Source: a virus
Length of the DNA stretch: 46,716 bases
Direction: 5' to 3' (one strand)
UHGV virus genome: UHGV-0246708
Under the pieces are notes generated by a model, which was given only the letters and a program-made list of their open reading frames with translations, ran no database searches and was not told where the DNA came from. Every line of letters starts with the position of its first letter. The stretch's first letter is position 1. The position numbers were made by a program, and so were the translations under genes. Positions 4,076 to 46,716 of this stretch are shown here, one piece after another.

Positions 4076-6190
4076 ATGAAAAACATTAGCTTGGAGTCAA
4101 TCCGTATTCATAATTTTAAAGGTATATCAGACCTTATGATTGAACCAAATGGTAAAAGTATTGATATTTTTGGAGATAACGATGCAGGCAAAACAACTAT
4201 CTATGATGCTTTTCTCTGGTGCTTGTTCAACAAAGATTCAAAAGAACGAACTAAAATCCAGTGGAGACCACTTGATGAAAATAGCGAGCCGATTCGCGGT
4301 AAACAGACATCAGTAACTGTAGTTTTAGCTATCAATGGTCAGGCAAAGGAGTTTGAAAAGGTCCGAGGAGACAAAGAAGTCATCAAACGAAATTCGGAAC
4401 ACAAGTCTTATGAGATGTTTACAAAATACCTCGTAGACGGATTAGAGACCACCACAAAGAAAGCATTTGACGATGAAGTAGAAAAAGTATTAGATCAAGA
4501 CACATTTAAGAATCTGACTAGTGTGACTTATTTTTGTGAGCAGTTAGTGGCAGATGAACGACGTCAAAAGCTTTTTGAATACTTTGGCAGCAAGACAGAT
4601 GAAGAGATTATCAACGAAACGCCATCGATTCACCAATTAAAAGAAATTATTGGCAATGATGACATTAAAACAGCTCGTGATCGTGTGCTTCAAGACCAAA
4701 AGCGAATCAACGAAACGCTGAAAAATATTCCTGTAAAAATCGAAGGTATTCAAGCAGCATTGCCAGATATTGAAAATATCAACAAAGAGCAACTATTAAC
4801 CACTCGCAACGAGTTGACATCAAAGAAAAATGATATCGAAAACCAGCTCGTTACTATTAGAAATGGTGGTAATATTTCAGAATTAATTGCAAGTCTTAAT
4901 ACAAAACAAGAAGAATTAACTGCTGCTAAATTGAAGCATGATAATGCACAGAATGCACGTATTAATGGCATTGAGCAAGGTAAGTCAAAACTCTTTGCTG
5001 ATTTCAATAAAGCCCAGAAGACGTATGCAGATGAAGAATCAAGTCTTAATGTAACAGAACGTTTGGTTTCTATAAAAGATAATGAACTGATTGCATTAAA
5101 TAAAAAGCATGAAGAATTGTACGACAAATATGATGAAGTAGAAGCTGAAGAATTTACAGGCGGTCTAGTTTATACCAAATTATCTTTCAATGAAAATCTT
5201 TTAGTTTGTCAGCACTGTAATCGTCCATATGATGTCAAGGATCAAGATGAAATGAAACGACATCATGAGGAAGAAGAGCAAAAACGTGCAGAAGAAATTG
5301 AGTTAACAAATAAAGAAATAAAAGCCCAGTTTGAAGCGGATAAGCAAATCAAGCTCTCTGAAATTCGAGAAAAAGGCATTCAAAATAACAAAGATCGCGA
5401 AGCCTTAAAAAAAGAGATCGGCGAGTTAAAAGAACAACTATTGATTAAAACAGAAGCATATAACATTGCTAAAAAACACTTGGAAGATGTGAAGGAAAAC
5501 TTAGCTGATGTAGAGCAGCAGATTTCCTCATTAAAATTAGAAAAAATACCATTTGAAGCAACTGAAAAATATTCAACTATCACTAAAGAAATAAAAAAAT
5601 TGCAAGAGTACATTACTCAAAGTAACGAAGCTATTCTAGAACAAACTTCCGCTAAAACAAGTGAGATTACAGAAATAGATAAAGAAATCGCAATGATTGA
5701 TGAAAAATTAGCCTTGCTAAAAGAGTATGAAAGACAGTTATCGATTATTGAAGATTTCAATGAACAAGAGCGCCAATTATCACATAAGAAAGGCGAAGTA
5801 TTACAAAAATTAGTACTATTTGAAGAATTCTTTATAACAAAACAAAACATGCTGCAAGAAATTATAAATAGTCATTTCTCAGTTGTTAAATGGAAATTGT
5901 TCGATTTCTTTGAAGATGGAGGACTGAATGAAGCAGTATGTGAGCCGATGATTGACGGGGTACCGTTCAGTTCTCTAAATAACGGTAGCCGTATGCAAGC
6001 TGGATTAGATGTCTCAAATACGTTGATGAAACAGGAAGGCTATATCGTTCCAATTTTTATCGATAACGCTGAAGGTTTGACTAATCACAATAGAGACTCT
6101 GTTCAAGTAGACACTCAAGTTATTGCTATGTATGTAAATGAAGATGATAAAGCTTTACGAATCAAAAATCACAAAACGGAGGGCAAATAG
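4076..6190 (+). CDS. SMC/SbcC/RecN-like ABC ATPase with a long coiled coil. The track starts it at 4052, but ATG 4076 behind GAAGGAG is better supported.
   Basis: N-terminal Walker A GDNDAGKTT. Central heptad-rich coiled coil. C-terminal Walker B-like VPIFIDNAEGL. Confidence 0.7.
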   Translation: MKNISLESIRIHNFKGISDLMIEPNGKSIDIFGDNDAGKTTIYDAFLWCLFNKDSKERTKIQWRPLDENSEPIRGKQTSVTVVLAINGQAKEFEKVRGDKEVIKRNSEHKSYEMFTKYLVDGLETTTKKAFDDEVEKVLDQDTFKNLTSVTYFCEQLVADERRQKLFEYFGSKTDEEIINETPSIHQLKEIIGNDDIKTARDRVLQDQKRINETLKNIPVKIEGIQAALPDIENINKEQLLTTRNELTSKKNDIENQLVTIRNGGNISELIASLNTKQEELTAAKLKHDNAQNARINGIEQGKSKLFADFNKAQKTYADEESSLNVTERLVSIKDNELIALNKKHEELYDKYDEVEAEEFTGGLVYTKLSFNENLLVCQHCNRPYDVKDQDEMKRHHEEEEQKRAEEIELTNKEIKAQFEADKQIKLSEIREKGIQNNKDREALKKEIGELKEQLLIKTEAYNIAKKHLEDVKENLADVEQQISSLKLEKIPFEATEKYSTITKEIKKLQEYITQSNEAILEQTSAKTSEITEIDKEIAMIDEKLALLKEYERQLSIIEDFNEQERQLSHKKGEVLQKLVLFEEFFITKQNMLQEIINSHFSVVKWKLFDFFEDGGLNEAVCEPMIDGVPFSSLNNGSRMQAGLDVSNTLMKQEGYIVPIFIDNAEGLTNHNRDSVQVDTQVIAMYVNEDDKALRIKNHKTEGK

Positions 6191-15976: not shown

Positions 15977-15997
15977 AATGAAATTTTATATTTCATT
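15977..15997. terminator. Bidirectional AT-rich hairpin AATGAAAT-TTTAT-ATTTCATT between convergent genes.
   Basis: Perfect 8-bp inverted repeat overlapping both stop codons. Confidence 0.35.
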
Positions 15998-16462
15998 TAA
16001 CTGTTCGATTATAGTAAGCAACTCTTGCAGTGAGTTTTTCATATTTTTACCTTGAAGGGTTTCTTGGTAAGCGGCAAACTGTTTTTTATTTCGGGGGTCA
16101 TCATCAAATGGCATTTCATCCCACACACAATAGCTTTTTCCAAAAATAAATTTTTTAGTAATAACTAGGGGAAAGGTAAAACTTGGCTTTACATCTAAAG
16201 CAACAAATTTAAAAGGTGTTTCTCCATGCTTGCTATAATTCCAAAGATATTTGTAACCAAGTAATGTTTTATCTTTGTAGATGTTTTTATTTGATCGTTC
16301 TAAAAAACTTCCTACAAAAGCTAGAGTAATAAATATTTGTTCTTCTATTAAAATATTAAATGAACTATCACTTGTGTTAAACAATCCAGGATTGTTTAAC
16401 ATGTTGATTGAAAGATTGATATGTTTTAATGTTAAAGCACGTAATGTTTTAAGTTCCATAAT
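15986..16462 (-). CDS. Hypothetical protein (158 aa from MELKTLRAL). The track extends it to 16552.
   Basis: Strong RBS AGGAGGAGATAATTATG. AT-rich codon usage. Moron position. Confidence 0.55.
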   Translation of the reverse strand: MMELKTLRALTLKHINLSINMLNNPGLFNTSDSSFNILIEEQIFITLAFVGSFLERSNKNIYKDKTLLGYKYLWNYSKHGETPFKFVALDVKPSFTFPLVITKKFIFGKSYCVWDEMPFDDDPRNKKQFAAYQETLQGKNMKNSLQELLTIIEQLNEI

Positions 16463-16613
16463 TATCTCCTCCTGTGTATATAGTAACATATAAATAACAG
16501 TTGCTTTCCTAATACAAATATAAATACAAAAACACTGAAGCAGATAGAACATATAGTAGCTAAAAATAATATTTTCTTCTTTTCGTGATATAATTGTAGT
16601 AAAGGAGAATTTT

Positions 16614-17405
16614 ATGTCAAAGAAATATAAGATTATTGATACCCTTAGTCGTGTTGAATTTGGAGAATTAAAACAATGTGAGTTTGAATCCTACAAACAA
16701 TTTGTAAAAAAATATAAATGGTTTGAAAACGTCTTTTTTTCCTTTGAGTTAGCGAATAAATCGGTGAAACAATTCAAAGACTTTGAAAAACACATAAATT
16801 CGAAAGAAAATAAATATGATATAAATGAAATTCACACAACTGGGCTATACCATATAACTAGCTTGGTTTTATTTCTAAGATTATTTATCGACAATTCAAA
16901 AAGTTACTCAACCAAGGTGTCTTCAGAGTGTAAACTATTCATCAAAAAAACAGAGAAAAATCCAAGTATAAAAATACTGAAAGCTTTAAGAGATTATTCT
17001 CAACATTACCACTTACCAGTGGAAAATACTCATAGAGTATATGATATATTTAACGAAACTATGACAACAAAATTTATAATCACCAAGTCTGATCTTTTAA
17101 AAAATAAAGAAAACAAACGCAACCTTGCTATTATCGAACAATATCCTGATGATGAAATAAACATTGGTGAAAAAATTGATGAATGGTTTCAAAGTATTAC
17201 TTTGCTTATGGAGAATATTTTAGAAGAATTTACAAGTAATATTTCAGAAGAGACAAAAAATATATTGCGCAATAAGTTTGGATGGATTCAAAGTAAAGAT
17301 AAGAAGTATTTTTTGAATTCAGTTGTTGAAGAAGGTGAGTATTATCCAGAAATCTATTATTCAACAGAACCACGAGTTTTAAATGTTATACTAATGATGA
17401 TTTAA
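16614..17405 (+). CDS. Hypothetical 263-aa protein with an Rx4H (HEPN-like) motif, a candidate abortive-infection or RNase-type moron.
   Basis: RDYSQHYH (R-x4-H-x-H). Very AT-rich, Lys/Asn/Ile-rich composition. It has its own extended -10 promoter TGATATAAT and the RBS AAAGGAG. Confidence 0.55.
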   Translation: MSKKYKIIDTLSRVEFGELKQCEFESYKQFVKKYKWFENVFFSFELANKSVKQFKDFEKHINSKENKYDINEIHTTGLYHITSLVLFLRLFIDNSKSYSTKVSSECKLFIKKTEKNPSIKILKALRDYSQHYHLPVENTHRVYDIFNETMTTKFIITKSDLLKNKENKRNLAIIEQYPDDEINIGEKIDEWFQSITLLMENILEEFTSNISEETKNILRNKFGWIQSKDKKYFLNSVVEEGEYYPEIYYSTEPRVLNVILMMI

Positions 17406-41861: not shown

Positions 41862-42968
41862 ATGAAAAAGTTTAGTAAGTTTTTATTATCATTAGTTGTA
41901 GTTACAGGATTATTGTTACCAACTGCCGCAGATGCTTATCAAGTGGAACAAGATCCTATCGATTTTGGCGGATATTTTCCAGGTTATGCGACTAACGAAT
42001 TAATTGTCTTGCACGAGTCAGGAAATGGGAACAACGTTGGCCTAAACAGTCTAGACAATGAAACGGCATATATGAAACGCAACTGGACGAGCGCTTATGT
42101 TTCATATTTTGTCGGTTCTGGTGGTCGCGTGAAGCAGTTAGCGCCAGTTGGCCAGATTCAATGGGGAGCGGGAGCGACAGCCAATGCAAAAGCATATGCA
42201 CAGATCGAACTTGCTCGAACGAATAATAAAGAAACATTCAAGAAAGACTATGCTGCCTATGTCAATTTGATTCGTGATTTAGCAACACAAATTGGTGCAA
42301 CATTTGACTTGGATGATGGAACAGGATATGGAATTGTGACGCATGATTGGATCACAAAAAATTGGTGGGGGGATCATACAGATCCATACGGATATTTAGC
42401 ACAGTGGGGAATTAGCAAAGCACAACTAGCACAAGATTTACAAACTGGACTTCCAGAAGATGGTAGCGAAGTTATTGTAAATCCTGGCAAGCCTAATAAA
42501 CCAAAATATAAAGTCGGTCAGCACGTTCGCTTCACAACAATCTACAAAAATCCAGATGCGCCAATTTCTCAGCATATCAATGCAAACACATTGTGGACTC
42601 AAGTTGGAACCATTACACAAAAAATAAATGGCCGTAAAAATCTATATCGCATCGAAAACAGCGGCAAACTTTTAGGTTATGCAAACGATGGTGATATTGC
42701 GGAGCTTTGGGAAAACAGCAAACCAACACCAGCTAAAACATTCACTATTGGTGTAAATGAAGGAATTGTGTTGCGTACTGGATCACCTAGTTTGTATGCG
42801 CCAGTTTACGGCGTGTGGCCAAAAGGTGCACAATTTAGATATGATTCGGTTCGTGTGGCCGATGGCTATGTTTGGTTAGGGGGTTCTGATTCAAACGGAA
42901 CTCGGATTTGTATCCCAGTTGGCCCAAATGATGGCAACCCAGACAATACTTGGGGTACTGGATATTAA
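41862..42968 (+). CDS. Endolysin: Sec signal peptide, N-acetylmuramoyl-L-alanine amidase (Amidase_2/PGRP) and C-terminal SH3b-like binding repeats.
   Basis: Signal peptide MKKFSKFLLSLVVVTGLLLPTAADA|YQ. Amidase_2 motifs VLHESGN...THDWITKNWWGDHTDP. Two SH3_5-like repeats. Confidence 0.85.
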   Translation: MKKFSKFLLSLVVVTGLLLPTAADAYQVEQDPIDFGGYFPGYATNELIVLHESGNGNNVGLNSLDNETAYMKRNWTSAYVSYFVGSGGRVKQLAPVGQIQWGAGATANAKAYAQIELARTNNKETFKKDYAAYVNLIRDLATQIGATFDLDDGTGYGIVTHDWITKNWWGDHTDPYGYLAQWGISKAQLAQDLQTGLPEDGSEVIVNPGKPNKPKYKVGQHVRFTTIYKNPDAPISQHINANTLWTQVGTITQKINGRKNLYRIENSGKLLGYANDGDIAELWENSKPTPAKTFTIGVNEGIVLRTGSPSLYAPVYGVWPKGAQFRYDSVRVADGYVWLGGSDSNGTRICIPVGPNDGNPDNTWGTGY

Positions 42969-43061: not shown

Positions 43062-43135
43062 GGACCATTAGCTCAGTCGGTTAGAGCAAACGGCTCATAA
43101 CCGTTCGGTCGATGGTTCGAATCCGTCGTGGTCCA
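43062..43135 (+). tRNA. tRNA with anticodon CAT (Met elongator or Ile2).
   Basis: Full cloverleaf: acceptor GGACCAT/GTGGTCC, D-arm GCTC-AGTCGGTTA-GAGC, anticodon arm AACGG-CTCATAA-CCGTT, T-arm GATGG-TTCGAAT-CCGTC. No encoded CCA. Confidence 0.8.
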
Positions 43136-43143
43136 TAAAATTA

Positions 43144-43172
43144 TTGATCTGCGAACGAGTGTTTGTTATAAT
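43144..43172 (+). promoter_or_regulatory. Strong sigma-A-type promoter TTGATC-17 bp-TATAAT with an extended -10 TGn.
   Basis: Seen directly at about 43144-43149 (-35) and 43164-43172 (TGtTATAAT). Confidence 0.55.
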
Positions 43173-43206
43173 CGAAGTGTAATCCTCATATGATTATATC
43201 TGCTAA

Positions 43207-43246
43207 AGAAGTTACGAAAATGCTTGTTTTCGTAACTTCTTTTTGG
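43207..43246 (+). terminator. Leader hairpin or intrinsic terminator between the promoter and the first gene of the two-gene operon. It may also define a roughly 65-nt small RNA.
   Basis: Perfect 14-bp stem AGAAGTTACGAAAA/TTTTCGTAACTTCT with loop TGCTTG, followed by TTTTTGG. It is flanked by a 12-nt inverted repeat TTATATCTGCTA (about 43194) and TAGCAGATATAA (about 43258) that abuts the start codon. Confidence 0.5.
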
Positions 43247-43270
43247 TTTAATTAAAATAGCAGATATAAA

Positions 43271-43675
43271 ATGGAAAAGTGGGGATATTCATTGTTGAAA
43301 TTTGATAATTATCCAGAGAGTTGCCCTCCAGCTGAGGCTATCCCATTTGATGGAGTTTTTTTCAGACTATGTAAGGGTGAAAACTTTTGCGAAGAAGATT
43401 TTCTTACTCATTTTGAAGCTGGGAAAAGTTTCCCAGATAAAAAACTGTGTGAAGCTATGGCATTATCATTTTTTGATAGCTATGATCATGCAGAAAAATT
43501 AAAAAAAAGATTTAGAAAAAAATTTGCAACATGTTCTATCAAACCTGTTGCAATTATTGAAGATTATGGAGTAGGAATTTTTGAAGAGAATTCAGGGCAT
43601 CTTAATTTATGGGAGCACAGGAACGTTGATATTTTTGCTGATTTAATGAAGGAGGATAAAGGAAAAGATGAATAA
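43271..43675 (+). CDS. Hypothetical Cys-rich protein (134 aa), first gene of an accessory two-gene operon. No Shine-Dalgarno sequence.
   Basis: ORF track entry. Cysteines at C18, C34, C40, C60, C88. The upstream region is AT-rich with no GGAGG. Its stop overlaps the start of the next gene. Confidence 0.6.
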   Translation: MEKWGYSLLKFDNYPESCPPAEAIPFDGVFFRLCKGENFCEEDFLTHFEAGKSFPDKKLCEAMALSFFDSYDHAEKLKKRFRKKFATCSIKPVAIIEDYGVGIFEENSGHLNLWEHRNVDIFADLMKEDKGKDE

Positions 43676-44831
43676 TCTAATATTTTCAGACATGGAATAT
43701 ATTTTCGTTTTTGACTATTATGATACTCCTTTATTTTTCATTTCTCGAAGTCGGAAAAATAATAATTACTATTTATTCTACTCTATAAATGATGACGTTT
43801 ATTTTTACAGTGAGCTATCTGCTTCGGATATTAATTACTTATTTAGTAATCCAAATGGATACGACATTCTTCATTACCTTAAAAAGAAGTCTAAATTAAA
43901 TTTTGTTATGGTAAATAATAATTCTTTTGATATCTATAGCTTAGCGGAATATACAAATATATTTAATGAAGATATTAGCGAAGCACTACCTTTGGAAAAG
44001 TATCCAATAGAGTTTGATTTGGTTCATAAGCTTGATTTTGAAGATATAAGAATTAATTATAAAAGCTATTTTCCAAATGTATATGCTAATGATCAACTGA
44101 CTCTACGAATAAAAAATAAAGAGAATAGTAGCTCGTTAAATATTGATATTGTTTATAGTGCTTTAGAATTTATAAGAAGTACATGGCAAGATTTAAGTCA
44201 AAGGCATGCAGAATTAGGAACTCAGAAGAAACTTTTGATGTCCGCACCTTCAAGAGGGTCGCTAAAACTTGATTTCGAATTAGAAAAGGATCAACAAACG
44301 GGATTATTTACTGATGAGGCCTCTTTTTCTGAACTAATTGACTTCGTAGATAATTTAGCCTATATACCAATGTACGATGAAGAAGAACTGTTTAATGAAA
44401 GAAAGCTCATTGAAGAAACTGCTAAGCTGTATAAAGTTATTGAAGAAAATGATTTATCAATTGATTTAATTTCCAATCAAGTTAAGTTGAGTAATATAAA
44501 AAAATCAGAAAAGATCAAAAGAAATTTAGATGTTATGTTGTCTAGTGTGAATGATCAAATAAATGAAAGAAACGTGTTAACTGAAGAAATAGAGATAGAA
44601 GGAGAGGTCTTGGCTGCAAATAAAAGTAAGAACTATTTTAAGATTAGGTCTTTAGCACATGGAGATATCTCAGGTACATTTGAAAGAACGCTATTTAAAC
44701 AAATAAAGACCTCTGAAGTACAAATTACGATTTCAAAAAGTATTCATGCTTATATTACTAAAGAGCAAATTACTGATATCGATACCAACGAAACGAAAAT
44801 AAAGTATACATTAAATTCTTTTACTCAATAA
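43668..44831 (+). CDS. Hypothetical protein (387 aa), second gene of the accessory operon. Very AT-rich, with an Asn/Tyr/Phe-rich N-terminal region.
   Basis: Overlaps the upstream gene by 8 nt. GGAGGA RBS. No recognised catalytic motif. A terminator follows. Confidence 0.65.
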   Translation: MNNLIFSDMEYIFVFDYYDTPLFFISRSRKNNNYYLFYSINDDVYFYSELSASDINYLFSNPNGYDILHYLKKKSKLNFVMVNNNSFDIYSLAEYTNIFNEDISEALPLEKYPIEFDLVHKLDFEDIRINYKSYFPNVYANDQLTLRIKNKENSSSLNIDIVYSALEFIRSTWQDLSQRHAELGTQKKLLMSAPSRGSLKLDFELEKDQQTGLFTDEASFSELIDFVDNLAYIPMYDEEELFNERKLIEETAKLYKVIEENDLSIDLISNQVKLSNIKKSEKIKRNLDVMLSSVNDQINERNVLTEEIEIEGEVLAANKSKNYFKIRSLAHGDISGTFERTLFKQIKTSEVQITISKSIHAYITKEQITDIDTNETKIKYTLNSFTQ

Positions 44832-44836
44832 CGTAT

Positions 44837-44886
44837 TTAAGACCCTAGCCTACTATAAGCTACGGTCTTTTATTTTTATCAGAATT
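44837..44886 (+). terminator. Rho-independent terminator of the accessory operon.
   Basis: AAGACC-CTAGC...GCTAC-GGTCTT stem followed by TTTATTTTTAT. Confidence 0.5.
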
Positions 44887-44934
44887 AAACAGTCATTAAC
44901 GAAAGTCTTGCTCCCAGATAAGAGTGAGCATTTT

Positions 44935-45183
44935 TTATGCACTAATCAAAGATTTCCTTACAAGCATTTTCTCAATGACAAGTTGATTTCGTTTATTCAA
45001 GTGACCATAGACCGCTAATTCAGATCGTTCAGGTAACATTAGTAGCGTATTTGCCAGCTCGTTTTTCGAGACGATACAGTTTATAGTTTCGTCCTGTGTT
45101 ACTAATGAGAATCGAACTAGCATTTTTGGGTACATACTTAACATTCTAATCTTATCAACTACTCCTACATAATTAGTTTTCAT
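44935..45183 (-). CDS. Hypothetical 82-aa protein with its own promoter and a strong RBS. It lies adjacent to attP on the side that becomes the attR end after integration.
   Basis: RBS AGGAGGG 7 nt before the ATG. Upstream promoter TAGACA-18-TATAAT on the minus strand. No recognisable domain. Confidence 0.55.
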   Translation of the reverse strand: MKTNYVGVVDKIRMLSMYPKMLVRFSLVTQDETINCIVSKNELANTLLMLPERSELAVYGHLNKRNQLVIEKMLVRKSLISA

Positions 45184-45249
45184 ACTATCGCCCTCCTAGT
45201 AATATAATTATACCGAATGTATGTTCGTGTTGTCTATAGAAAAATTTTG

Positions 45250-45570
45250 TAAATCTATGAAATGATAAAAACAAATGGTGATACATTTGGTGATACATCT
45301 GAAATATCTATGAAAAAAATGTAAATAGTGAAAGACTTCAATAACTAATAAATCATTGATATATAAGTAATCGGAAAGAATGAAATCTATGGAAATGTTT
45401 TATCTAACAAACGCAACATGTTCGCTTTATTAGGTAAACCAGGTTTTGAAGAATTAGCAAAAGATTTAAATGCACGCCTATAAAACAGCATTCTAAGATA
45501 ATTTTTAGCTTTGCGGTGATACAAAGATGTTTGCTTTGAAATATTTTTGGTGATACAAATGGTGATACAT
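45250..45570. repeat. attP-like region. Five direct copies of (T)GGTGATACA, two at about 45276 and 45288 and three at about 45514, 45548 and 45560, are candidate integrase arm-type sites. There are also three copies of ATCTATG(A/G)AA and an AACATGTT-centred palindrome at about 45411-45424 that is a candidate core.
   Basis: Repeats seen directly in the sequence. The region lies immediately 3' of int between convergent genes, as expected for attP. Confidence 0.5.
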
Positions 45571-45580
45571 TTATAAATAA

Positions 45581-45612
45581 AATCAGGTAACGTTTTAGTT
45601 ACCTGATTTTTT
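45581..45612 (-). terminator. Hairpin ATCAGGTAAC-GTTTTA-GTTACCTGAT overlapping the int stop and followed by a T run. It is the int terminator and reads bidirectionally.
   Basis: Perfect 10-bp inverted repeat seen in the sequence. Confidence 0.5.
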
Positions 45613-46716
45613 GTGTTGCATTTGATATAATTCAAGTTTATTTACAGCTCGTTCTTTAACTTCAGCAGATACGTGTGCATATATCTCAGTTGTTTTAACG
45701 TTCTTGTGACCAAGCATGTCTTTAATATCCTCAAGTGGAACTCCTGCTTGTCGTAAACGAGCAGCATTAGTATGGCGACCGTCATGAATTCTGATTTTTG
45801 GTAAGTTTGCTTTTTGAATGATTCGGTGCCAAGCCGTGTCAACGGATCGTTGACGAATAGGTAAGCCAACGTTTTTTCCTCTATGATTGATAAATAAAAA
45901 ATCTTGGTTTGAGTTAGTCATAGGTAATACATTACTTGTAAGATCATAATTAATACCATAGAGTTCTAAGACGGAGTTTCTCACTCTGTTTGTCATTTTT
46001 AGAGACCTTTTACCAGCATCAGTTTTAACGTCATCTAAAATTACTTGACCAGGTCGTTCTTTTCTATACAAACGCTGCTTGTCAAATGTGAGAATATTAT
46101 CTCTAAAATCAAAGTTAAACCATCGTAAGGCCATTACTTCACCTTTTCTTAATCCTAAATCAAAAATAATTAAAAAAAATACATACCACATATACTCATC
46201 AAAATTTCTTGCAGTGTCGAGGAACAGATTTTCCTGCTCTAAAGTATAGAATTCTAGTTTCTTTTCTTTATTAGTTTTTTCTTTTACTTTATCTAATGGA
46301 AACTCTACTAAGTAGGTAGGATTACTTTTTACAAAACCTAATTTTTGTGCCTTTTTGAAAGCATTGGACAAGGCGGCATTTACAATTTTTACTGTGTTAT
46401 AACTGAGCCCGTTTTTATTTTTTCCTAATTCTTTATTCGTAAATAAGCTATTAATAAATTTTTGGTGATCTGCAGGTTTATATTTATTTAATTGATAATT
46501 TCCTATATATGGATCAATATACATACGGATAGCATCTCGATAGACAATTCGTGATCCTTCCTTAACATTGTTTTTATACTCATTGATCCATATATTCATA
46601 AATTTTGAAATAGTCATTTTTTGTGGGTTTTCTTTAACGAATTCTTCAGATGCAATTTGTCCTTCAACTATTTTTGCAGCCTTCAAAGCTTCCTTATGAC
46701 TTCTAAAACCTCTCTT
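45595..46716 (-). CDS. int: Tyrosine integrase, C-terminal 373 codons. The ORF is open to the window edge and continues in frame at 105..1.
   Basis: Catalytic signature R...HDGRHT (HxxR)...LGH...TTEIYAHV (catalytic Tyr). The frame stays open through 46716 (..KRGFRSHKEALKAAK..). Codon boundaries at both window ends match. Confidence 0.9.
   Translation of the reverse strand, partial: KRGFRSHKEALKAAKIVEGQIASEEFVKENPQKMTISKFMNIWINEYKNNVKEGSRIVYRDAIRMYIDPYIGNYQLNKYKPADHQKFINSLFTNKELGKNKNGLSYNTVKIVNAALSNAFKKAQKLGFVKSNPTYLVEFPLDKVKEKTNKEKKLEFYTLEQENLFLDTARNFDEYMWYVFFLIIFDLGLRKGEVMALRWFNFDFRDNILTFDKQRLYRKERPGQVILDDVKTDAGKRSLKMTNRVRNSVLELYGINYDLTSNVLPMTNSNQDFLFINHRGKNVGLPIRQRSVDTAWHRIIQKANLPKIRIHDGRHTNAARLRQAGVPLEDIKDMLGHKNVKTTEIYAHVSAEVKERAVNKLELYQMQHKKSGN

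Follow-up and report, generated by a model that had tools for sequence, protein, structure and literature searches.

Do two adjacent AT-rich genes at positions 43,271 to 44,831 of the UHGV virus genome UHGV-0246708 represent an undescribed system, as an initial annotation made from the nucleotide sequence alone had suggested, or a divergent branch of a known one? Our analysis of the whole 46,716-nt stretch (hereafter, the window), whose source is a temperate Enterococcus faecalis phage, favors the second answer. The pair (genes A and B) is probably a divergent PD-T4-10-type toxin-antitoxin abortive-infection module, a member of a DUF6575 two-gene family carried as mobile prophage cargo, as judged from profile homology, strict pairing and genomic context. 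The claim of an undescribed system is not supported, since A falls into the PD-T4-10_A family and B into a superfamily comprising DUF6575, PD-T4-10_B and PDC-M63B. The most novel element of the locus is a structured RNA leader in front of the pair, which is shared with other loci and absent from Rfam.

Relationship of the gene pair to PD-T4-10

The basic layout agrees with the initial annotation: two open reading frames (ORFs) on the plus strand, 43271-43675 (134 aa, five Cys) and 43668-44831 (387 aa; rich in Asn, Tyr and Phe, with N 8.8%, Y 6.2% and F 6.2%), overlap by 8 nt (ATGAATAA). The statement that the first of them lacks a Shine-Dalgarno (SD) sequence is true only of the ATG at 43271, a codon replaced by CAG, AAG, AAT and ACG in four related loci (A proteins 61–87% identical). 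This lack of conservation, along with the N-terminus MLKFD of most homologues (with a GTG start in L005), favors TTG 43292 as the likely start of a 127-aa protein, and an SD-like GUGGGG (AAAGUGGGGA) is located ~7 nt 5' of this codon. The start of B is preceded, at ~12 nt, by AGGAGG.

Library scans of the window proteins against Pfam, NCBIfam and PHROGs yielded no match for either A or B, and the initial annotation had recognized neither protein nor any motif in them. This still holds for direct matches of window B, but not for A, which matches the PADLOC profile PD-T4-10_A with E 7.6e-5 (residues 16-123 aligned to profile positions 23-139 of 148). The same profile is matched, over nearly its whole length, by 11 of 12 close relatives of A, and by remoter members and partners in other loci with E-values from 1.8e-7 to 3.8e-10, all of these matches being at the level of remote homology and none strong. 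Profile searches collected 81 relatives of A (all annotated as hypothetical) from Enterococcus, Bacillus, Staphylococcus, Priestia, Sporosarcina and metagenomic lineages; a scan of species-representative genomes produced a single locus, in Marinilactibacillus.

For B, a word-indexed search returned 11 relatives and an exhaustive profile search 99 cluster representatives among 1.84 billion proteins. One direct match of window B (P0011; 23% identity, E 1.9e-7) carries the Pfam domain DUF6575 (E 3e-10; 40.3 bits at a gathering score of 26.6). Among 56 full-length relatives, DUF6575 (PF20215) is matched by 25 (E < 0.01, best 6.9e-34), PD-T4-10_B by 16 (best 1.6e-13) and PDC-M63B by 15 (best 9.4e-15, over the C-terminal two thirds). 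In individual proteins, PD-T4-10_B aligns to the N-terminal ~100–120 residues (profile positions ~18-134 of 353) and PDC-M63B to the remainder. An hhalign comparison of the close B family with the DUF6575-type subgroup gave 99.7% (E 5.8e-26) over 356 columns. By this profile alignment, B is thus a full-length homologue of DUF6575-type proteins, a superfamily relative lying below the reach of the Pfam model, which describes only the N-terminal ~170–180 residues of a family without assigned function and does not detect window B.

The two families travel together. Each of the 19 distinct loci examined has a small A gene directly 5' of a DUF6575-type gene (369–411 aa), overlapping it or within 20 nt. 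The conservation of the pair, which the initial annotation had proposed to check, spans prophages of Enterococcus and of Staphylococcus-like and Bacillus-like types as well as remote relatives from metagenomes. These loci include L003, L004, L005, L021 and Marinilactibacillus L006, as well as viral contigs (L007-L017), in several of which the pair lies 3' of a CHAP/amidase lysin at the contig end. The Enterococcus pair occurs after three different lysin types and before an integrase or the prophage end, and pairs are also found after Staphylococcus-type lysins. Remote pairs adjoin a type III restriction-modification system (L018, whose A partner aligns with the A family at 99.8% by hhalign), an MmeI-type enzyme and an integrase (L019), an integrase (L030) or SIR2_2 (L035 and L037). 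Copies in L006 (after sufB) and L003 are chromosomal, with no obvious prophage nearby.

As a separate observation, A is split by a frameshift in L010 (5604-5977; 87 + 57 aa) and B is intact, which would be unexpected if A is an essential antitoxin; an error in sequencing or decay of this copy could explain it.

The genomic position had been described in the initial annotation as the slot between the lysin plus tRNA and attP, and this description is borne out by the lysin and tRNA-Met upstream, the integrase downstream and a comparison with L022, a copy integrated into the chromosome of E. faecalis. Homology between L022 and the window stops near 45210 and is followed by host genes. Five copies of GGTGATACA with 12-nt spacing, in two clusters (45276-45298 and 45510-45582) enclosing ~200 bp, look like integrase arm-type sites around an attP core, and together these features place attP between the 82-aa ORF and the integrase. 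Sibling phages carry other cargo in this slot: between the same tRNA-Met and 82-aa-ORF flanks, EFC-1 encodes a TIR protein and IME197 an ‘abortive infection bacteriophage resistance protein’ (Abi). The left homology of the window with both phages ends exactly at the 3' end of tRNA-Met, so the promoter is a part of the cargo. A megablast search of the region against INPHARED matched the flanks only and not the A-B pair, and tblastn of B against the same sequenced phages gave no match. The G+C content of the pair (29.3%) is among the lowest 2% of same-size segments and below that of the window (34.8%), in line with an AT-richness that had originally been stated relative to the structural genes. 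The exchange of TIR and Abi proteins in sibling phages, the three lysin types and the remote integrase, restriction-modification and SIR2_2 neighbors support the suggested horizontally mobile accessory cargo. Sibling-slot contents, remote defence-gene neighbors and homology to a defence family make an anti-phage module its most likely identity; the homology found thus leads to defence, and the pair recurs as a conserved unit elsewhere, leaving this part of the original proposal standing.

The best characterized relative, PD-T4-10 of E. coli ECOR65 (Vassallo et al., 2022; PMC9519451), is described in passages of that report as two overlapping ORFs of unknown function, A followed by B, of which B is toxic and A, which could not be deleted, neutralizes it; deletion of B abolishes protection against T4, the defence is abortive, and the system protects against T-even phages. 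The same passages list DUF6575 among the domains new to defence, the system carrying it being unnamed there. Both systems consist of same-strand overlapping ORFs with a small A preceding a B of ~350–390 aa (1604 bp in E. coli, 1561 bp here), both reside on mobile DNA, and the homology involves window A as well as the N-terminal domain of the relatives of B. The E. coli system differs in belonging to another phylum with very low sequence identity and in its longer A (at least 162 aa). The Enterococcus module differs in its structured leader, in a function assigned by homology, and in the B family, where window B lacks a direct PD-T4-10_B match and, in the relatives that have one, the rest of the protein aligns to PDC-M63B. 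The latter profile belongs to PDC-M63, a two-gene PADLOC ‘phage defence candidate’, prophage-borne in E. coli NILS69 (bioRxiv 10.1101/2024.12.20.629700). In spite of the similarity between PDC-M63B and the C-terminal two thirds of B's relatives, no A-family member matches PDC-M63A, and the PDC-M63B profiles (~309 positions) do not contain the DUF6575 N-domain.

The architecture of B provides some hints of its possible activity. The N-terminal DUF6575-like region is modeled confidently at ~aa 20-110, the central region poorly, and a helical hairpin (~aa 238-301) precedes a predicted C-terminal OB fold. Conserved positions of the family (Y17, Y18, D19, P21, P108, S198, F199, G312, G336, Y380) are hydrophobic or structural only, with no conserved residues of a catalytic type, and toxicity of B, if any, would therefore more likely be exerted by binding than by catalysis. 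A variant in L003 (6377-7543), likewise paired with an A homologue, shares only its first 160 residues with window B (33% identity) and continues with an unrelated C-terminal region of 230 aa. This suggests a core of A plus the DUF6575 N-domain with exchangeable C-terminal regions in at least two, possibly three, variants. Matches of the L003 protein to designer PPR proteins were discarded as an artefact, involving one 40-aa motif against a repeat protein.

In the mechanism that we infer (toxicity, neutralization and defence, along with the OB-fold ligand and the role of the leader), the locus would act as a three-part mobile module consisting of its own promoter with a folded leader, A, and the overlapping B, whose translation is presumably coupled to that of A. 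If the roles known from the homologous E. coli PD-T4-10 carry over, B would be an effector that arrests growth and A would neutralize it. Infection by another phage would upset the A:B balance, and the cell would be arrested or dead before the invader completes its cycle, an abortive infection protecting the population of lysogens and the resident prophage. The DUF6575 N-domain, which co-varies with A, is a likely A-contact or regulatory domain, and the C-terminal OB fold probably binds a nucleic acid or protein ligand. Overall, PD-T4-10, a system validated in E. coli, is now placed in a small, strictly paired A + DUF6575 family, with structural leads in both partners: B has the predicted OB fold, and A combines enzyme-like invariant residues and a possible ADP-ribosyltransferase-like fold. 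Current PADLOC profiles would miss the system, since B is below the PADLOC threshold.

The structured RNA leader and its cargos

The initial annotation had a near-consensus promoter driving both genes. The promoter is indeed present (score 10 of 12, including the TG of an extended -10), but between it and the genes lies a strongly folded leader of ~120 nt (-40.1 kcal/mol, z -7.3) containing a terminator-like hairpin at 43205-43249. The consensus match alone is weak evidence, as 13 promoter-like sites were found in the region vs. 12.7 expected in shuffles; a stronger argument is its conservation across related loci, with the -35 TTGA and the GTGTTTGnTATAAT block kept in five loci. A weak second promoter (TTGGTT-17-TATAAA, with the -10 at 43265-43270) is a possibility.

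The leader DNA is better conserved than the A and B proteins. A 19-base motif from its 5' part had 81 matches in two collections, of which about 55 contain the whole element and ~22 were dropped as chance matches (the rest of the element absent, mostly in GC-rich contexts). With the window and earlier loci included, the whole element is present in 59 loci (the window, L005, L022-L029 and others among L038-L117). When 68 sources were searched with a covariance model, 53 yielded a single copy each; EFC-1, IME197 and the loci of Bacillus or Staphylococcus type yielded no copy. In a separate observation on Bacillus-type pairs, L004 (~230-260) and L007 and L009 (~5470-5500) lack the Enterococcus leader and share, near the promoter, a conserved block of their own, TTTGTCGAATAT(C/G)T, which may be an operator.

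Three nested helices (P1, P2 and P3; Table 1) make up the predicted structure. In an alignment of 39 distinct copies fitted to the covariance model, 89.8% of cells are paired, compared with 41–56% in slid controls, and 13 pairs (9 in P3, 3 in P1, 1 in P2) show compensatory changes, values that no shuffle reaches. For P3, a terminator scan reports a 17-bp stem at 43205-43249 including the U-run TTTTTGGTTT, and 9 of the 16 stem pairs carry compensatory changes, so that hairpin, U-run and covariation together characterize it as a predicted intrinsic terminator. RNAalifold applied to a plain MAFFT alignment favors the alternative 5' hairpin P0, and the mutual exclusion of P0 with P1 and the long form of P2 makes a two-state switch conceivable. 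Several interpretations of the element were tried and rejected. A leader peptide (a 21-codon ORF from ATG 43190) is incompatible with the replacement of this ATG by ACG or TAG, or its absence, in other copies, and with hairpin changes that are RNA-compensatory. A known RNA family was sought in Rfam 15, where only the tRNA of the window reaches threshold (the next best, Yfr10, scores 30 bits at a cut-off of 43) and six other leader-bearing loci likewise yield tRNA only; a text search of the literature for the leader motifs retrieved unrelated sequences only.

Nor is the leader specific to the A-B pair, as the first genes behind it fall into 15 unrelated clusters. Some of these cargos are named by NCBI as ‘DUF4868 / Kiwa anti-phage protein KwaB-like’, ‘HipA family kinase’ or ‘nucleoid-associated protein’ and others as hypothetical, all named members coming from Enterococcus species; four cargo proteins searched against PDB and phage databases had no match. 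A lysin or holin is located 0.2–2.4 kb 5' of the leader in 32 of the 59 loci; upstream sequence of 1.5 kb or more is present in 40 of the 59. Two loci (L106 and L050) combine the backbone of the window (lysin 98%, 82-aa ORF 91–96% identical) with another cargo, of 414 aa, and in phage EG-TP1 the leader stands between the endolysin and a two-gene cargo, with an integrase downstream. In Enterococcus phage vB_ElaS_B1578 (L118, 3001-3092), it follows an ArpU-family late-regulator gene and not a lysin, which indicates at least two locations of this cassette head among phage genomes. As a side observation, an Enterococcus-type leader (83% identity) was also seen in OR846730.1 and OR848098.1 (labeled Listeria) and PQ554527.1 (labeled Acinetobacter), in the last at almost the same coordinates as in vB_ElaS_B1578; these records may have wrong host labels or represent contaminant phages.

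The SD sequences behind the leader vary (GAGGAU, GGAGG, GUGGGG, GAGGGA), all being complementary to an invariant AUCCUC, which mimics the anti-SD of 16S rRNA and could thereby explain how one leader serves any cargo. The element, which usually comes just after the lysin, has the appearance of a portable ‘cassette head’ to which different prophage cargos are attached. The terminator hairpin and the anti-SD:SD helix probably keep the expression of the presumably toxic pair, and of other cargos (some perhaps toxic as well), low or conditional, and the leader may act in cis, as an attenuator combined with a translational block, or in trans, as a short RNA. Precedents for such arrangements include riboswitch-like expression platforms, type I toxin mRNAs with their folded 5' ends, and type III systems such as ToxIN, in which promoter, RNA, terminator and gene follow one another. 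Common to them and to our locus is a promoter with a short, conserved RNA behind it that contains an intrinsic terminator and a helix sequestering the SD, all located 5' of a (here presumed) toxic pair. The leader differs in having no ToxI-like repeats, recognizable aptamer, Rfam match or identified antisense promoter, and none of the precedents serves 15 unrelated cargo families.

The leader thus suggests a single interchangeable promoter-plus-RNA head for varied defence-like cargos of Enterococcus prophages (KwaB-like, HipA-family, nucleoid-associated-like and several unknowns). It could be used as a search handle for new enterococcal defence genes, with a bearing on phage therapy against E. 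faecalis and E. faecium, and may point to a common regulatory input of prophage-encoded immunity.

Alternative readings of the pair

Several observations weigh against a PD-T4-10-type toxin-antitoxin module. The PADLOC match of window A is weak. Window B has no direct match to DUF6575, PD-T4-10_B or PDC-M63B (window B and its 11 close relatives give none to PD-T4-10_B at E up to 1), so that its link to the defence profiles is transitive and, for PD-T4-10_B, confined to the N-terminal third. PDC-M63AB, assayed with ten phages in the E. coli host that naturally carries it, conferred no defence phenotype (bioRxiv 10.1101/2024.12.20.629700). B is acidic overall, and its predicted OB domain has a net charge of -1, atypical for ssDNA-binding OB folds. 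Experiments on toxicity and defence concern E. coli PD-T4-10 only, the Gram-positive members being known from sequence. Finally, the enzyme-like conservation of A fits a simple stoichiometric antitoxin poorly.

This last point leads to the alternative that survives best, one that we consider unlikely, in which the roles are reversed or shared: A would be the active enzyme, possibly with an NAD+-using ADP-ribosyltransferase fold, and B a non-enzymatic sensor or adaptor that holds A, targets it or is modified by it, its OB fold recognizing phage nucleic acid or protein, a variant of defence with another mechanism. In 43 diverse members of the A family (numbered from TTG), P8, C11, P12, P13, R25, C53, S59, G93, H103 and W107 are invariant, across phyla and at only about 20–35% identity; judged by conservation, this set (CPP, R, C, S, H, W) is enzyme-like. 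The retention of C11, R25, C53, S59, H103 and W107 in A, compared with only structural residues in B, makes A the more enzyme-like partner, which is odd for an ‘antitoxin’. The structure model of A gives a weak ADP-ribosyltransferase-like signal, and the first strand, where Arg comes after an aromatic residue, together with the next strand, which carries Ser, can be interpreted as showing the order of the R-S-E class. The fold was, however, not corroborated by Foldseek, which found nothing significant for the A model in PDB, and profile searches of the A and B families against PDB returned chance matches only (ribosomal protein L37, a designed protein). With regard to a catalytic triad (R-S-E or H-Y-E type), R25 and S59 are invariant, but no Glu is conserved in the A family: the one following HxNxW (E108) is confined to the Enterococcus clade and replaced by V, L, W or R elsewhere. 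Compared with known toxins of this fold (the RES toxins MbcT and ParT, DarT, Tpt1/KptA, cholera- and pertussis-like toxins, and the Rhs toxins TreX and TreTu), A thus has no sequence-level signal, significant structural match or conserved catalytic Glu. Moreover, the transferase is the toxin in those systems, whereas PD-T4-10A is the neutralizer; in the E. coli system, B and not A is the partner toxic on its own (PMC9519451). The link of A to ADP-ribosyltransferases is therefore a lead only and not a membership.

A bolder combination, to which we assign a comparably low probability, joins both unusual features of the locus. The leader would be a new cis-regulatory RNA switch, or a trans-acting terminated RNA operating via its anti-SD, that passes one control signal (e.g., superinfection or induction) to many Enterococcus prophage defence cargos, and A, instead of binding passively, a minimal enzyme with the ADP-ribosyltransferase fold. 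If true, PD-T4-10-type systems would be enzyme-controlled modules with an RNA regulatory layer.

Returning to a toxin-antitoxin module with B as the toxin, a plain addiction or stabilization function, ensuring persistence of the prophage or the cassette with no anti-phage role, appears improbable. Such a function would be consistent with the small and large overlapping ORFs, the toxin-antitoxin behavior of PD-T4-10, a leader predicted to be tightly repressing, the lack of a defence phenotype of PDC-M63AB and the chromosomal copies without an obvious prophage (L006 and L003). Against it are the TIR or Abi protein in the same slot of sibling phages, the KwaB-like and HipA-family genes behind the same leader, the restriction-modification and SIR2 genes adjoining remote pairs, and the protection against T-even phages by the validated relative PD-T4-10. 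A lysogenic-conversion or phage-lifecycle role outside toxin-antitoxin defence (e.g., B as an OB-fold nucleic-acid binder in superinfection exclusion, replication or host manipulation), suggested by the predicted C-terminal OB fold, the classic moron slot and the absence of a direct defence-profile match of window B, is highly improbable in view of the strict pairing with a PD-T4-10_A-family A in every locus examined, the full-length homology of B to the DUF6575 / PD-T4-10_B / PDC-M63B group and the presence of the pair outside prophages too.

Borders and other features of the locus

Coordinates of all features are collected in Table 1. The dedicated terminator noted in the initial annotation was recovered as a hairpin with a following TTATTTTTAT 3' of B; a strict terminator scan misses it and lists 44907-44928 instead.

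Table 1. Features of the A-B locus and its surroundings (positions in the window).
Feature	Position	Strand	Description
Amidase_2+SH3_5 lysin	41862-42968		Upstream of the A-B pair
tRNA-Met (CAT)	43062-43135	+	Left border of the variable slot; last stretch common with EFC-1 and IME197
Promoter	43144-43172	+	-35 TTGATC 43144-43149, 17-nt spacer, extended -10 TGtTATAAT 43164-43172
Leader	43173-43291	+	~120 nt separating the -10 from gene A; nested helices P1, P2, P3
Leader P0			Alternative 5' hairpin AUAAUC:GAUUAU; excludes P1 and the long form of P2
Leader P1	43182-43189 with 43279-43286		AAUCCUCA with GUGGGGAU; anti-SD:SD
Leader P2	43194-43205 with 43258-43269		UUAUAUCUGCUA with UAGCAGAUAUAA; 12-bp helix
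Leader P3	43206-43242, U-run 43243-43249		Hairpin, then U-run; terminator-like
Gene A	43292-43675	+	127 aa from TTG; PD-T4-10_A-like; presumed antitoxin
Gene B	43668-44831	+	387 aa; DUF6575 superfamily; presumed toxin/effector
B N-terminal region	43668-44192	+	aa 1 to ~175, DUF6575-like, FDYYDxPLFF motif; common to PD-T4-10_B and the L003 variant
B C-terminal domain	44565-44828	+	aa 300-387, predicted OB fold; preceded by the helical hairpin
Terminator-like hairpin	44839-44880	+	AAGACCcTAGC...GCTAcGGTCTT (44839-44869), then TTATTTTTAT; about -11 kcal/mol; kept in L022
82-aa ORF	44935-45183	-	phrog_15227; right border of the variable slot
Tyrosine integrase	45595-46686		Downstream of the A-B pair

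The 82-aa ORF at the right border belongs to a PHROG family without known function and had no match in a sequence search of PDB; in 16 of the 59 loci with the leader, a homologue (36–96% identity) lies 3' of the cargo. A cargo hotspot at the prophage end is also found in Streptococcus pyogenes, in the toxin/paratox region. The likeness is one of layout, with variable cargo between the lysin and the attachment site and a small conserved opposite-strand ORF at the border, and the two differ in that the cargo here is defence-like rather than composed of virulence factors and in the additional shared RNA leader. The 82-aa ORF might accordingly serve as an anchor for recombination, comparable to paratox of streptococcal prophages, or else regulate the leader.

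Elsewhere in the window, a 188-aa ORF on the minus strand (15986-16552), which had no match in a sequence search of PDB, stands amid plus-strand genes in the most AT-rich kilobase (G+C 0.279, 16001-17000) and is another moron-like insertion.

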